58,640 nt of DNA from a bacterium. GTDB lineage: Bacteria; Bacillota_I; Bacilli_A; RF39; UBA660. Made by a program: the position numbers and the translations under genes. Positions within the stretch are counted from its first letter, which is position 1. The number at the start of each line of letters is the position of its first letter. The stretch covers positions 19,539 through 78,178 of the forward strand of contig CAVLCG010000001.1 in the NCBI GenBank assembly GCA_963661445.1. The letters run 5' to 3'. The notes under the pieces were generated by a model that worked only from the letters and a program-made list of their open reading frames with translations, was not told the origin of the DNA and made no database searches. Of the stretch, positions 2,627 to 37,682 are shown piece by piece.

Positions 2627-3745
2627 ATGAATCAAGAAATATTAAGTGCTTTAAAGATAGTAGCAGTAACCTTTCTTTGTTCAGCACTGATAATGCCAGG
2701 AATGAAAAAAATTGCTTTTCATATAGGTGCTTTAGATGTTCCAAGAAGTGATGAGGGTAATAGACATATTCATAAAAGAGTAATGCCAAAACTTGGAGGA
2801 GTAGGAATATTTTTAGCTTTCTTAGTTGGTTATATGCTGTTTGGAATAGAAAGTATTCAAATGAATTCAATTCTGATAGGTAGTTTTATAATTATTTTAA
2901 CTGGTATCATTGATGATATTAAGTCTATTAGAGCGAGTAGAAAACTATTAGGACAATTAATTGCTGCTTGTATTATAGTCTTTTATGGAGGAATACTTTT
3001 AAATAACATTACAGCTTTTGGTTATACAATTGACTTTGGTATTTGGTCTTATCCACTGACTATTTTCTTTATAGTAGCTTGTACCAATATTATTAATTTA
3101 ATAGATGGCTTGGATGGTTTATGTGGAGGTATATGTAGTATTTTCTTTTTAACAATTGGTATAATTGGTTTCTTTCAAGGCAGAAGTGGTAGTCTTGTTA
3201 TGATTTTAACATTCATTATGTTAGGTGCTACCTTAGGATTTTTACTTCATAACTTTTATCCAGCTAAAATATTTTGTGGCGACTGTGCCATGTTCTTAGG
3301 CTTTATAATAGCAGTAATAACACTTTTAGAATTTAAGGGGCCTGCTTTAACCAGTTTATTTGTTCCTATAATGATTTTAGGTATACCTATTCTTGATACA
3401 TTATTTGCTATTATTAGAAGACTACTTAAACATCAACCTCCATTTGCTCCTGATAAGGATCATATTCATCATCAGTTATTAGGAATGAATTTTTCTCACA
3501 GAACAACAGTATTAATTATCTATGGAATTGATTTCTTATTTGCAACAGCTTCAATTTTCTATATACTTAAAGATCCTGTTTTAGGTAAAGTATTTTATAT
3601 CTTAATATTTATAGTAGTAGTATGGTTTGTTTTAAGGACTAGTATTATCTCTCCTAAAAACAAGGAAGTGACTGATAGTATTATTGATAAAGTGGAAGGT
3701 ACTATTAAGAAAGAAAAGAGAAAAAAACAAAAAAAGGTTAAATAA
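2627..3745 (+). CDS. tagO: glycosyltransferase family 4 (MraY/WecA/TagO-type) undecaprenyl-phosphate HexNAc-1-phosphate transferase
   Basis: Polytopic membrane protein with NLIDGLDGL and IIDD motifs of the MraY/WecA family. Start moved to MNQEIL after the AGAGGAAG RBS. Confidence 0.8.
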   Translation: MNQEILSALKIVAVTFLCSALIMPGMKKIAFHIGALDVPRSDEGNRHIHKRVMPKLGGVGIFLAFLVGYMLFGIESIQMNSILIGSFIIILTGIIDDIKSIRASRKLLGQLIAACIIVFYGGILLNNITAFGYTIDFGIWSYPLTIFFIVACTNIINLIDGLDGLCGGICSIFFLTIGIIGFFQGRSGSLVMILTFIMLGATLGFLLHNFYPAKIFCGDCAMFLGFIIAVITLLEFKGPALTSLFVPIMILGIPILDTLFAIIRRLLKHQPPFAPDKDHIHHQLLGMNFSHRTTVLIIYGIDFLFATASIFYILKDPVLGKVFYILIFIVVVWFVLRTSIISPKNKEVTDSIIDKVEGTIKKEKRKKQKKVK

Positions 3746-3773
3746 CCAGTGGTTAAACAACTACTGGTTTTTT
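3744..3773 (+). terminator. rho-independent terminator after tagO
   Basis: AACCAGTGG / CTACTGGTT stem followed by TTTTTT; it overlaps the stop codon. Confidence 0.7.
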
Positions 3774-3836
3774 GCTGTAAAAATATCCACTTTTATGGAA
3801 AAATATGGTAAAATTAAGGGGTCGGAGGTATACCAG

Positions 3837-4580
3837 ATGATAAATTTTATTATATGTGATGATGAGGAAATATTTAGAAATTCTATTAAGGAGAAAATAG
3901 ATTATTGTATGATGAAAAGTACTGTTGAATATAAAACTCATTTTTTTAGTTGCTATGACGAAAAGTTTTTCAATTTTGCTAAGAATCCTAATGGCTTTAA
4001 TGTTTACTTTTTAGATATTCAAATGCCAGATGGTGATGGTATAGATGTTGCGAGAACTATAAGATATAAACTAGGTGATTGGAATTCCCTGATTATCTTT
4101 GTAACCAATTTTAGTAAGTATAGAAATAAAGTTCTAACTAGTCGTTTGGATGTTTTAGATTATATTAAAAAATCTAAAAAAGGTTATGAACAATTGGAAG
4201 AAGTAATGGCTATAATACTTTCTAAATATAGGAGTACAGATGGCTGTTTAACTTTTGAGAAAGATCATTCTGTTTTTAAAATTAAGTATAGAGATATTGT
4301 TTTTATAGAAAGAGAGTTAAATAGTAAGTGTTGTATTTTATACACTACTAGTGGTGAGTATAGAATAGCTAAGTCATTATCCGAAATTGAAGAGCTGTTA
4401 GATAATAGATTTTTAAGAACTCATCGTAGTGCTATTATTAATGTAGATAAAATAATTGAATATAATGTTAAAACAAATATAGTTATTTTTTCTACTGGTG
4501 AATCAACTGATTTGGTAGCAAGAAGTAAGAGAAAGGAGTTGAAGGAACGTGTCCTTAATTATAGTAAAGTGTGTAAATAG
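3837..4580 (+). CDS. LytR/AlgR (LytTR) family response regulator, AgrA-like
   Basis: Receiver domain (IICDDEE ... YFLDIQMPDGDG) plus a C-terminal LytTR domain (FIERELNSKCCILYT...FLRTHRSAIINVDKI). The true start is the ATG at 3837 after a GGAGG RBS. The ORF-track extension back to 3684 runs through the tagO terminator. Confidence 0.9.
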   Translation: MINFIICDDEEIFRNSIKEKIDYCMMKSTVEYKTHFFSCYDEKFFNFAKNPNGFNVYFLDIQMPDGDGIDVARTIRYKLGDWNSLIIFVTNFSKYRNKVLTSRLDVLDYIKKSKKGYEQLEEVMAIILSKYRSTDGCLTFEKDHSVFKIKYRDIVFIERELNSKCCILYTTSGEYRIAKSLSEIEELLDNRFLRTHRSAIINVDKIIEYNVKTNIVIFSTGESTDLVARSKRKELKERVLNYSKVCK

Positions 4581-5837
4581 TTTAGTAATGAGCTTAGCTA
4601 TAATTTTTACTGCAATGTATTTAACTGATGAAAGAATAAAATTGATATCTATAAATACAATCTTTTGGATACTTATAAGTATTGCTCCATGTTTTGTTTT
4701 TTACGCTCCTGGATATAATATGCTTTTTACAATTTTTTCATTTTTATGTTTGGTACTGTTAATTAATCATTTATTTAGTATTAATGTGATGAGTTCTTCT
4801 GTAATAGTTATGTATTTTATAATACTTTCAATTATACCAGATTTAGTAGTCTCATCGATAGTTATTAACTTTTTAAACTATAATCAATTAATTAATAATC
4901 TTCTTGTATTTTTTATTACTAATTTTTCTGTATCAATTATTACATACTTTTTATTTAAAATACCTTTAATAACAAAACTTACTAATAATAGTATGATAAG
5001 AATAAACAAATCAAAACATAAAAACGTAATTCTATATGCTATTTTGTCTTTTTTCTCCATTGGTATAGCTTATTATAGTATAACTGACATTTTTAAACCA
5101 ACACATACTTATTTTATTATTAATCTTCTCGCATTATTTTTAGCAACACTTGTATTTGTATATATAAGTGAGTTAATTAAATACAATCAATTAGAAGATA
5201 AAAATGCCGTTTTATATGAATGTATGAAAAATATTGAAATTATCAGGAAGAACAGGATTTAAAAATTCATGAGTATAAGAATCAGTTATCTAAAGTAACA
5301 GCTTTAACTAATGATAAACTAGTACTGGAAAAATTAGAGGAAATATTGAATGTTGATTTAACTACAGATGTATATTTGTTAGGAAAATTAAAAAATGTAC
5401 CAAAGGGTGAATTGAAAAGTTTAATATACTACAAAATGTTAATTGCAAATAAAGAAAATATAAAACTTTCCATAAGTGTTACTAAACTAGATGAAAATAA
5501 CTATAGATTTACTAGGGAACAAGAAAAAAGTTTAAGTCATTTGATTGGTATTTTCTTTGATAATGCTATTGAAGCTGCCAAAGCATCAGATGAAAAGAAG
5601 ATTTTGTTTGAGATATATGATTCGAATTTAGGAATTACCTTTTTGATTGAAAATTCTTTTAGTGGAAATATAGATTTAAATAAAATTGATAAAAAAGGAT
5701 TTACTACAAAAGGAAAAGGACATGGAAATGGATTGCATTTTGCAAAAAAAATAGTTAAGAAGAGAATTGGCATTTATACTAGAAGATTAATAGAGAATAA
5801 TAATTTTATTCAAAAAATAATAATAGAAAAGGAATGA
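4549..5837 (+). pseudogene. AgrC-like (HPK10) sensor histidine kinase, reading frame interrupted before the H-box
   Basis: ORF 4549-5262 encodes a polytopic sensor domain with about 6 TM helices. The next frame is open from 5238 and reads NYQEEQDLKIHEYKNQL (H-box), then FFDNAIEAA (N-box) and GHGNGL (G-box), ending at 5837. The two parts overlap in different frames at 5238-5262. The downstream part has no ATG before the H-box. Confidence 0.7.
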
Positions 5838-5853
5838 ACTTTTAGTCCATTCC
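5831..5853. terminator. bidirectional hairpin shared by the convergent kinase and agrD genes
   Basis: GGAATGAAC-TTTTA-GTCCATTCC with one mismatch. A/T runs lie on both sides and the hairpin overlaps both stop codons. Confidence 0.5.
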
Positions 5854-5961
5854 TTTTAATGCTTTTGGCTCATCAACTGCCCACCAGATACAACCAACAC
5901 TAGCAGATGCAGTGGCAAGCATTCCTAAAGCTACTAATAATTTTGCAACTCTTTTTTTCAT
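5842..5961 (-). CDS. agrD: AgrD-like autoinducing peptide precursor (39 aa), absent from the ORF track
   Basis: Manual minus-strand translation gives MKKRVAKLLVALGMLATASASVGCIWWAVDEPKALKGMD. An AGGAG RBS sits 5 nt upstream of the ATG. The gene lies 40 nt downstream of agrB. A single Cys is followed by a hydrophobic stretch and then an acidic/Pro tail (VDEPKAL), as in AgrD. Confidence 0.7.
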   Translation of the reverse strand: MKKRVAKLLVALGMLATASASVGCIWWAVDEPKALKGMD

Positions 5962-6001
5962 ACTTGGCTCCTGTTCTATTTTAAATGTTAATAAATAACA
6001 T

Positions 6002-6586
6002 TTAAACCATTAAATAATTCCTATATGGCATACCATATATCCTATAAGTAATAGGTAAAATTAAAATTGTTTCTATTATCATACCTGATAATAAATATAT
6101 AGAAATATCATTATTATTAAATATTATTATTATTACTGAATAAATGATTGCTATTGCACAAGTTGCTATTTTTCTTAAGACTCTTTTCCTTTTGTTGGTT
6201 AAAGGTCTTTTTACTGTGTCAGCTGGAGCATATAGTATAAAGCATATAAATGTAATTATACATATTGCTATTTTAACTGGCAAAGTAATAGTAATTTTTG
6301 ACATTAGTAATGGGATACCTACTAATATCACTATAGATGAGAATAAGCAAGTTGAAGACTTATTAGCATGCATACCAAAGGCTGGATATCTGATTATATT
6401 AAAGAATATTAGAGTTAGAATAAATTCCTTAAATATTCCTAATAAGAATGCTAGTGGAAAAATTATTAAAAATTTTCCAAATGTTAAATATATTCCCTCT
6501 AGTCCGTATCTTAGTTCTTCTTCTTGTATTTCTATATTGTTACTTTTAACAAAAGAAATACAATTATTTAAAAATCTTTCTTTCAT
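6002..6586 (-). CDS. agrB: accessory gene regulator B (AgrB) family membrane peptidase
   Basis: 194 aa polytopic protein. 'IRYPAFGMHANKSSTCLFSS' matches the AgrB R..(A/F)GG.HA....C..S catalytic His/Cys region, and 'APADTVKRPL' is also present. Confidence 0.88.
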   Translation of the reverse strand: MKERFLNNCISFVKSNNIEIQEEELRYGLEGIYLTFGKFLIIFPLAFLLGIFKEFILTLIFFNIIRYPAFGMHANKSSTCLFSSIVILVGIPLLMSKITITLPVKIAICIITFICFILYAPADTVKRPLTNKRKRVLRKIATCAIAIIYSVIIIIFNNNDISIYLLSGMIIETILILPITYRIYGMPYRNYLMV

Positions 6587-6704
6587 TTTATACCTCTCTT
6601 GTTGCTTTAATGATACTATAAAAAGGTAACTATAGCTTAAATTGGCTCTTTTGCAAGATTACATTATATTAATAGGATATTACTTGTCATGATAAATGAT
6701 AAAA

Positions 6705-6743
6705 TTTACCGTTTGGAGTATTCTAAAAACCAATTACGGTAAA
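6705..6743. repeat. imperfect inverted repeat TTTACCGT-N23-ACGGTAAA in the agrB/csp intergenic region
   Basis: Read directly from the sequence. On the minus strand it can also be read as two similar 9-mers, ACCGTAATT and ACGGTAAAT. Function is unknown (operator, or csp 5'-UTR structure). Confidence 0.3.
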
Positions 6744-6850
6744 AGTATAAAAAATTCAAAAACTTATGTTAAGATACAATTACATCGTTTTAAGAAGTTC
6801 AAAAACCGGGACGTACTTAGTGGATGTAATAATTTATGGAGGTGAGCCAA

Positions 6851-7069
6851 ATGATAGGCAAAGTAAAATGGTTTAATAATGAGAAAGGTTATGGATTCAT
6901 TGAATATAAAGAAAATGAAGACATCTTCGTTCATTATTCAACTATTAACATCATCGGTTATAAGACTTTATCGGAGGGTCAATATGTAGAGTTTACTTTA
7001 CTAGAAACAAGTAAAGGATATCAAGCCGTTGATGTAACGCCTATAAAAGAACCAGCTACTGTAAAATAG
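6851..7069 (+). CDS. cold-shock protein (CspA family, S1-like CSD)
   Basis: GKVKWFNNEKGYGFI (RNP1) and DIFVHYS (RNP2). Start at MIGKV after a GGAGGTG RBS. The upstream intergenic region is long (about 260 nt to agrB). Confidence 0.92.
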   Translation: MIGKVKWFNNEKGYGFIEYKENEDIFVHYSTINIIGYKTLSEGQYVEFTLLETSKGYQAVDVTPIKEPATVK

Positions 7070-9201: not shown

Positions 9202-9882
9202 ATGGAAGTATATCAAATAATTAGTTTAGTAGTTTTAATTGTTATAATTATTTATTCAGCAGTATTATCAGTAATATACTATGTAAGAAGTTATAAGAGT
9301 AAAAAGATAGATGCTAGTAATAAAAGTGGTAAAGAAATAGTTGCATCTATCTTAGCTAAGTATAATTTAAAAGATATAAAGATAGAAAAAATAGATGGCA
9401 GTGATAGATATTTCTATACTGAAGATACTGTTTACTTATCTAAAGATATCTATGAAGGTAAAAGTATTTATGATGTAGCAGTTAGTGGTTATCTTGTCTC
9501 ATCTTTTATTAAGAATAATGAATCTAAACATTTAATTAGAGTTTTATCAAATTTATATTCATTTTTAGATTTTACTATATTGTTTAGTTATGCTATTGTC
9601 ATTCTAGGACTAAGTTTTGAAATAAGTAATCTTATTTGGATAGGTGTTTATCTTCTTATTTTTGCTTTCATAAGTAACATATGCTTATATATTAAAGAAA
9701 GAAAATTAATAAATGATACTGTTAATATATTAAGACATGAAGAGATTATTAATACTACTTTAAAAGAAAAAACTACTAAGATGTTATTTTCTATAGTAAG
9801 TTTATCAGTAGCTTCCCTAGTTTTTAAAGTGACTTCTTTTTTTCAAAAAGCAATATATATAATAATAAATGATGAGGAGTAG
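9202..9882 (+). CDS. YugP-family (Zn_peptidase_2-like) membrane protein lacking the HExxH motif
   Basis: The N-terminal TM helix, 'GKEIVASILAKYNLKDIKIE...VYLSKDIYEGKSIYDVAVSGYLVSS' and C-terminal TM helices align with B. subtilis YugP from memory. GYLVS replaces HEAGH. Confidence 0.55.
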   Translation: MEVYQIISLVVLIVIIIYSAVLSVIYYVRSYKSKKIDASNKSGKEIVASILAKYNLKDIKIEKIDGSDRYFYTEDTVYLSKDIYEGKSIYDVAVSGYLVSSFIKNNESKHLIRVLSNLYSFLDFTILFSYAIVILGLSFEISNLIWIGVYLLIFAFISNICLYIKERKLINDTVNILRHEEIINTTLKEKTTKMLFSIVSLSVASLVFKVTSFFQKAIYIIINDEE

Positions 9883-37553: not shown

Positions 37554-37559
37554 AGTGTT

Positions 37560-37655
37560 AATTTGTTGGTGCCAAAGACAGTAGGTATAAAAATAAATCC
37601 TACCGAGGACAACGTTTCGTTAGAAAGTTCTCGAAGTCTTTTGAGAACTTTTTTG
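37560..37655 (+). promoter_or_regulatory. L10 (rplJ) leader with terminator/attenuator
   Basis: GCCAAAGACAGTAGG...CCTACCGAGG helix, then the terminator AGTTCTC-N10-GAGAACT plus T5 at 37624-37655, upstream of the rplJ RBS. This matches the layout of the Firmicute L10 leader. Confidence 0.6.
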
Positions 37656-37682
37656 CACCTTCAAACTAGATAGGAGGATGTT

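Follow-up and report, generated by a model that had tools for sequence, protein, structure and literature searches.

The agr-type locus and its precursor gene

The window analysed here, a 58,640-nucleotide stretch of contig CAVLCG010000001.1 (assembly GCA_963661445.1), carries directly after an agrB gene a 39-codon open reading frame (ORF) that is very probably a genuine agrD, the precursor gene of an autoinducing peptide (AIP) in an agr-type locus of uncultured human-gut Bacilli related to Clostridium sp. CAG:451. Its translation is MKKRVAKLLVALGMLATASASVGCIWWAVDEPKALKGMD, then TAA (window 5842..5961, minus strand), and has the layout of an AgrD: a leader MKKRVAKLLVALGMLATASASVG, a core CIWWAV and a follower DEPKALKGMD. 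The gene order at the locus is agrA-agrC converging on agrB-agrD, with the following genes and elements:

5842..5961, minus strand: agrD coding sequence, 39 codons plus stop; leader at residues 1–23, core at C24–V29, follower at D30–D39
5968..5972, minus strand: ribosome-binding site (RBS) AGGAG of agrD, separated from the ATG by 6 nt, a direct reading of the sequence
5875..5892, minus strand: predicted macrocycle core C-I-W-W-A-V (codons 24–29), hypervariable by column entropy
5845..5874, minus strand: follower DEPKALKGMD, which AgrB is predicted to recognise and which would be lost on cyclisation; D-E-P nearly invariant
6002..6586, minus strand: agrB, a membrane cysteine peptidase/cyclase and presumed processor of AgrD, 194 codons; Pfam PF04647, 108.3 bits, E=3.8e-31
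4549..5837, plus strand: agrC, an AgrC-type sensor histidine kinase (GHKL) with HATPase_c_5; best match the AgrC NCBIfam model; frameshifted
3837..4580, plus strand: agrA, a LytTR-family response regulator with Response_reg and LytTR domains; best NCBIfam match quorum_RR_AgrA

The agrB stop and the agrD start are separated by 40 nt on the same strand. An earlier note on this DNA had proposed an AgrD-type pro-peptide at this place; its ORF coordinates, AGGAG RBS, ATG at 5961 and 40-nt spacing to agrB all proved exact, and the three-part layout that it described (leader, Cys core and acidic, Pro-containing follower) is borne out. The position directly after agrB was likewise upheld, as agrB is confirmed by Pfam and the arrangement recurs in 26/26 loci.

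The AgrB motif IRYPAFGMHANKSSTC (R..G.H......C) has its R, G, H and C invariant in 20 distinct AgrBs of the family, and these residues align with R70, G75, H77 and C84 of Staphylococcus aureus AgrB. All four residues are required for proteolysis by the S. aureus enzyme (PMC10196373). A PDB sequence search with AgrB gave no match and hence no structural template for the cleavage register. An ORF of 160–161 aa also runs antisense to agrB (window 6144..6629, plus strand; 3332..3814, minus strand, at loci L028 and L034) and is called in place of agrB in some assemblies, so that agrD stands there without an annotated AgrB.

With the AgrB protein as query and one genome per bacterial species, we obtained 27 loci, all from metagenome-assembled genomes (MAGs) of uncultured gut Bacilli, including Clostridium sp. 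CAG:451 (AgrB 97% identity), CAG:594 and Candidatus Aphodocola; only for the last two, which are distant relatives, is a placement in RF39 documented. A homologous ORF of 39–47 codons, with a GGAG-type motif kept at the RBS position, lies directly after agrB at all 26 loci that have DNA there, and is still present where AgrB identity is only about 43–51%; at locus L023 the homologue starts with TTG. Conservation beside agrB in relatives, named as a check when the peptide was first proposed, was therefore found throughout. Across 11 close agrD alleles, the ratio of non-synonymous to synonymous polymorphism (pN/pS) was lowest in the leader (0.05), intermediate in the tail (0.17) and highest in the ring (0.38). 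In the same alleles 17 leader codons showed synonymous variation only, the non-synonymous rate was 0.20 in the ring versus 0.013 in the leader (~15-fold), and the non-synonymous changes clustered at codons 25, 28 and 29.

Because the AT-rich window holds dozens of comparable short ORFs (30–60 codons), a length of 39 codons is alone no evidence for a gene, and the abundance of such frames would also fit an untranslated chance frame in AT-rich intergenic DNA. We give this explanation practically no credence, given that ORF and RBS are kept at every locus down to about 43% AgrB identity, that the leader is constrained as described above, and that significant matches exist among 1.84 billion proteins (see below). 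The conservation of the ORF after agrB therefore makes agrD more than a chance frame, and the pattern of substitutions indicates that it is a conserved gene under coding constraint, with its leader under strong purifying selection.

An exhaustive phmmer search of the 1.84 billion representative proteins returned 13 further AgrD relatives of 30–56 residues (E 5e-7 to 8e-4), which share a G-[C/S]-x5-[D/E]-E-P layout except for a truncated 30-aa variant (P0034). The best NCBIfam match of the window AgrD was TIGR04223 (AgrD family cyclic lactone autoinducer peptide; curated cut-off 19 bits), at 17.6 bits and E=0.0032. This model was the top match for every member tested, with ten relatives scoring 14.4–21.3 bits and three passing (19.7–21.3). 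The Pfam model of staphylococcal AgrD (PF05931), which the earlier note had proposed to search, did not match the window peptide, and the best score in the family was 12.6 bits against a cut-off of 22.7 bits; this negative result is uninformative since the model is specific to staphylococci.

The peptide had also been described as unlisted and missed by annotation, which did not hold: gene calls on 183 public contigs already include the exact sequence, which one source labels 'lipoprotein'. It falls in a 90%-identity cluster of 45 members, several of them named 'cyclic lactone autoinducer peptide'; a named cluster-mate is CDE73265.1 / UPI0003349651 of Clostridium sp. CAG:451. The naming of alleles is inconsistent because the scores of the family straddle the TIGR04223 cut-off. 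The gene is a member of a known family with existing public annotation, and the peptide itself is uncharacterised. The earlier failure to recognise it as a characterised AIP agrees with the searchable literature, in which we found no paper describing the peptide; a full-text search for ring motifs, follower motifs and reference AgrD strings gave nothing relevant, and RF39 was unmentioned in the top-ranked papers of an RF39/agr literature search. A survey of AIPs in the human microbiome covered 306,481 genomes and had nine predicted AIPs synthesised.

Core, ring size and processing

Column entropy was calculated over 45 distinct precursors anchored on the Cys, with positions counted from this residue:

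Position -4: almost always Ala, 0.31 bits
Position -3: Ser (31) or Thr (14), 0.89 bits
Position -1: Gly, invariant, 0 bits
Position 0: Cys 43, Ser 2, 0.26 bits
Positions +1 to +5: variable, 1.9–3.0 bits
Positions +6, +7 and +8: D (44/45), E (45/45) and P, <=0.15 bits

Cys and the five residues after it make up the whole of the variable core, which is bracketed by the invariant Gly and the nearly invariant D-E-P. Conservation of the Cys and of the D-E-P tail, which the earlier note had asked for, is therefore present at the counts listed.

These columns also bear on a caveat attached to the first proposal, that the ORF might encode a tiny lipoprotein in which Cys24 is diacylglycerol-modified and signal peptidase II cuts at SVG|C, leaving a 16-residue lipopeptide. 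The name given to the exact sequence by one public source agrees with this, as do the signal-peptide-like N-terminus and a [ST]-x-G-C sequence that loosely fits permissive lipobox patterns. However, Ser replaces Cys in two relatives (P0037 and P0043), a substitution that suits a lactone and not lipidation, and position -3 is always Ser or Thr and never the L/V/I of the lipobox [LVI][ASTVI][GAS]-C. The gene is moreover tied to agrB at all 26 loci, and the D-E-P follower and the TIGR04223 matches fit AgrD. Because two relatives carry Ser in place of Cys, we reject the lipoprotein as highly improbable.

We consider it likely that the product is a six-residue ring, C-I-W-W-A-V, because the core is Cys plus five residues, the spacing is that of Clostridium acetobutylicum AgrD and the S. 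aureus cut falls before D-E. In S. aureus, C84 of AgrB cuts AgrD-I between M32 and D33, directly before D33-E34, and both of these acidic residues are essential for cleavage (PMC10196373). The C. acetobutylicum precursor reads ...GK-CVLVTL-YEPKMPEEL (PMC10301443 supplement) and its AIP, detected by mass spectrometry (MS), is a six-membered macrocycle that lacks an N-terminal extension (PMC8251862). The window register CIWWAV-DEPK is the same, C-x5-[Y/D]-E-P-K, and its Cys-to-D-E spacing is five residues, not four as in the commonest AgrD form with a five-residue ring. In addition, strains with CIWWAV and CIWWAL have rings that differ at C+5 only and carry AgrC sensors that are 40% identical alongside AgrBs that are 98% identical; this fits a signal that includes C+5, on a single clean pair in which relatedness is uncontrolled. 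CIWWTV and CIWWTI were considered as a second pair differing at C+5 only and were dropped as not clean, their sensors being 64% identical.

The earlier note had headlined a five-residue ring, C-I-W-W-A, and offered the six-residue ring as its alternative; the headline now appears the less likely and the alternative is favoured. In the five-residue case AgrB would cut after Ala28, with Val29 as P1', to give a C-I-W-W-A thiolactone, tailed or tail-less. Among characterised AIPs, rings of five residues predominate by far (PMC10301443, PMC8251862), and C+5 is only V, I, L or M in the 39-aa and 41-aa relatives, which could mean a constrained P1'; both points weigh against the longer ring. In the wider family, however, C+5 varies no less than the rest of the core (2.64 bits, including A, H, F, T, W and D) and is followed by the invariant D-E-P, and E-P-K stands at the distance seen in the C. 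acetobutylicum peptide, whose six-membered ring was confirmed by MS. Given also that the S. aureus cut falls directly before D-E and that the CIWWAV and CIWWAL alleles pair with such different sensors, we regard the five-residue ring as possible though rather unlikely.

For the six-residue ring, we propose that the signal-peptide-like leader would bring the precursor to the membrane, where AgrB would cut V29/D30, just before the D-E pair as in S. aureus, with acyl transfer to Cys24. The product of this cyclisation would be the thiolactone C-I-W-W-A-V, from which a second protease would remove the leader. Two conserved sites fit the -3/-1 small-residue rule, A-S-A|S-V-G-C and S-V-G|C. Cleavage at the invariant G|C would give a tail-less ring that could pass by an S-to-N acyl shift to cyclo(CIWWAV), with [M+H]+ 759.365, and cleavage after A-S-A would leave an S-V-G tail, with [M+H]+ 1002.487. 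Computed [M+H]+ values are 759.3647 for CIWWAV and 1002.4866 for SVG-CIWWAV, and 660.2963 and 903.4182 for CIWWA and SVG-CIWWA respectively; G+CIWWAV and VG+CIWWA would have one and the same value, 816.3861. The native clostridial AIPs detected by Molloy et al. and the one reported earlier were all tail-less and had undergone the S-to-N shift to homodetic cyclopeptides (PMC8251862), and the S. aureus leader protease is MroQ, not signal peptidase (PMC9388083). The adjacent AgrC would sense the peptide and lead to activation of AgrA, which would probably drive the agrBD promoter; because agrC is frameshifted, these last steps are unworkable as written in the window genome.

Among known systems, C. 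acetobutylicum AgrD (CA_C0079; six-membered tail-less AIP, R6T0) shares the Cys-to-follower spacing and a hydrophobic core, and its agrBD and agrCA are also separate transcription units. Unlike the window leader, its own is long and charged and does not resemble a signal peptide (54 aa in total); the follower, YEPKMPEELLKENIDK, is also longer, and there is no detectable similarity between the two precursors outside E-P-K; the LanM-like gene found downstream in C. acetobutylicum-type systems is absent here. The Ruminiclostridium cellulolyticum peptide Rc-AIP1, cyclo(CWFWSY), resembles the predicted product in having six residues with Cys first and in being Trp-rich (PMC8251862). Rc-AIP1 is tail-less, and such thiolactones rearrange by S-to-N acyl shift to homodetic cyclopeptides (PMC8251862). 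By analogy, C-I-W-W-A-V could realistically rearrange in this way if cleavage of its leader fell at G|C. Rc-AIP1 was shown experimentally, controls sporulation and comes from a different lineage.

Receptor alleles and the agrC frameshift

Sliding-window DNA identity between the window and loci L001 and L007 was distributed as follows:

Flanks: 98–100%
agrA: about 86%
agrC sensor half: 54–64%
agrC kinase half: 66–80%
agrD/agrB (from about 5840): 90–94%

The agrC gene is the centre of a hypervariable block with sharp edges (window about 3837..5840). At the protein level, comparison with L001, L007 and L008 showed 97–100% identity for the flanking genes, 87–98% for AgrB, 87–97% for AgrD and 82–92% for AgrA, falling to 64–66% for the kinase half of AgrC and 39–42% for its sensor half.

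Single linkage at 75% over the 24 loci with a complete AgrC gave at least nine sensor classes, each with its own ring sequence. Between classes, identity was 34–68% in the sensor half, 58–90% in the kinase half and 75–100% (mean 85%) in AgrB. The rings of the classes are:

Class 1: C[I/L]WW[A/T]V
Other classes: CLWWAM, CVWWLL, CIWWAL, CLWWMV, CLWWLV, CIWWSL, CIWWLV and CIWWTI

A class-1 AgrC accompanies the exact CIWWAV allele in every case (11/11); the statistics of allele and receptor are limited by the metagenome DNA-pattern scan, which gave 10 loci. Sibling AgrD alleles are carried on contigs of 1.3–1.4 Mb, and the genome of the lineage appears small. We tentatively suggest, with some reserve, that these alleles are polymorphic pherotypes, in which at least nine sensor classes are paired with six-residue rings of the form C-[ILV]-W-W-x-x, one class boundary lies at the sixth residue only, and natural populations segregate agrC mutants that are blind to the signal and agrB mutants that do not make it.

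In the window, agrC is broken into two ORFs in different frames, which the earlier note had not seen. The lesion is the loss of a G from TTGA[G]AATT at about 5237/5238, the only gap in a comparison with locus L003 (93.5% over 1,290 nt), and lies outside any homopolymer run, just upstream of the H-box ...EEQDLKIHEYKNQ. AgrC is intact (430–453 aa) in 24/24 related loci reaching agrC and in 10/10 independent contigs encoding exactly the window AgrD; the relatives have the intact AgrC of a complete circuit, and the window has an intact agrA with a split agrC. A second lesion was found at L034 (ERZ28656074), which has an identical AgrD and a frameshifted agrB (about 3375..3959) with ~19 nt missing near the N-terminus, and the lineage does include defective agr variants.

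On balance, we lean slightly towards a circuit that is defective in the window genome, with the peptide made and not sensed, as in agr-defective S. aureus isolates, or with the locus decaying. The 1-nt deletion outside a homopolymer splits the sensor half from the half with H-box and ATPase, AgrC is intact at all other loci examined, which makes the lesion private to the window, and the independent agrB frameshift of L034 shows that such variants occur in the lineage. In a contig assembled from a metagenome, however, an indel of one base may be an assembly or consensus error, and there is no other lesion in agrC, with agrA, agrB and agrD intact.

Several points weigh against reading the locus as an agr system with a six-residue AIP. 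The window allele scores below the TIGR04223 cut-off and is without a Pfam AgrD match. Leader cleavage is ambiguous, with both A-x-A|S-V-G-C and S-x-G|C conserved, and the receptor argument for C+5 hangs on one clean allele pair. The frameshifted agrC may mean that the peptide is made but unsensed in the window genome, or that the locus is decaying; and the organism is uncultured, with the AgrD function presented here being a reading of its sequence.

Expression signals, neighbours and significance

Three further elements flank agrB and agrD:

6663..6690, minus strand: sigma-70-like promoter upstream of agrB (ATGACA, 16 nt, TATAAT), 11/12 consensus, a consensus match only
6704..6740, minus strand: a pair of conserved boxes, ACCGTAATT at 6740..6732 and ACGGTAAAT at 6712..6704, immediately upstream of the agrB -35
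5827..5857, minus strand: terminator-like hairpin that takes in the agrD stop and lies where agrD and agrC converge; 14 pairs, then a U-rich tract

The -35 ATGACA is retained in most of the closest relatives. The boxes, AC[C/G]GTAAAT, are kept across 10 loci while the flanking sequence diverges, and are candidate AgrA (LytTR) binding sites. They resemble the S. aureus AgrA box. Their start-to-start spacing of 28 bp is atypical for LytTR sites, for which 21 bp is usual. The hairpin at the agrD stop folds at -16 kcal/mol (z=-3.06 versus shuffles). An Rfam scan of the agr region found no RNA family; the sole family at gathering score in the window is a ribosomal protein L10 leader (RF00557, 48.4 bits) at 37554..37663, plus strand.

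On the opposite strand, the maximal agrC ORF begins with GTG at 4549 and shares 32 nt with the end of agrA (window 4549..4580), an overlap also present in the called genes of relatives, where the called AgrA product is 247 aa; this suggests translational coupling of the two genes. Beyond the boxes, CTTCTTAAAACGATGTAATTG (about 6775..6798, minus-strand reading) is invariant in 10/10 close loci, with adjacent intergenic DNA diverging, and sits upstream of a divergent cold-shock protein gene (6836..7069, plus strand; Pfam CSD), of whose promoter or leader it may be part. Three genes from agrB, a putative membrane zinc metallopeptidase (Zn_peptidase_2; 9202..9882, plus strand) is 59–60% identical in the L005/L006/L009 group, compared with 86–88% for its neighbours cysS and hpf.

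By comparison with S. aureus agr, the locus has the same four components, the AgrB catalytic residues and the acidic D-E pair after the core, and its alleles are hypervariable, with peptide and AgrC sensor changing in step, like those of the S. aureus specificity groups. It differs in that agrA-agrC converge on agrB-agrD and do not form a single agrBDCA operon, that the leader is signal-peptide-like and not an amphipathic helix, and that the follower has 10 residues versus 14. Divergence is centred on agrC (all of it, with part of agrA) rather than on agrB, and there are at least nine receptor classes versus four groups.

The agr-type peptides are the best-understood quorum signals of Gram-positive bacteria, with chemistry and genetics that come almost entirely from staphylococci, Listeria and a few clostridia. 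The present locus leaves the understanding of how agr systems work unchanged, and documents such a system in an abundant uncultured lineage of human-gut Bacilli, in which the exact peptide is found on 183 contigs. It also holds a lesson for annotation, in that a family straddling a hidden Markov model (HMM) cut-off has alleles of one gene named differently or mislabelled as lipoprotein. CIWWAV, as cyclopeptide or thiolactone, is a synthesisable target with natural variants at three positions and matched natural receptors, and the set of alleles and receptors is a panel for AIP-receptor specificity and for strain-level interference in the gut. The polymorphism of receptor and ring raises the modest interest of the locus somewhat: if the pherotype reading is true, it would mean that a never-cultured human commensal uses six-membered cyclopeptides to discriminate kin at the level of strains.

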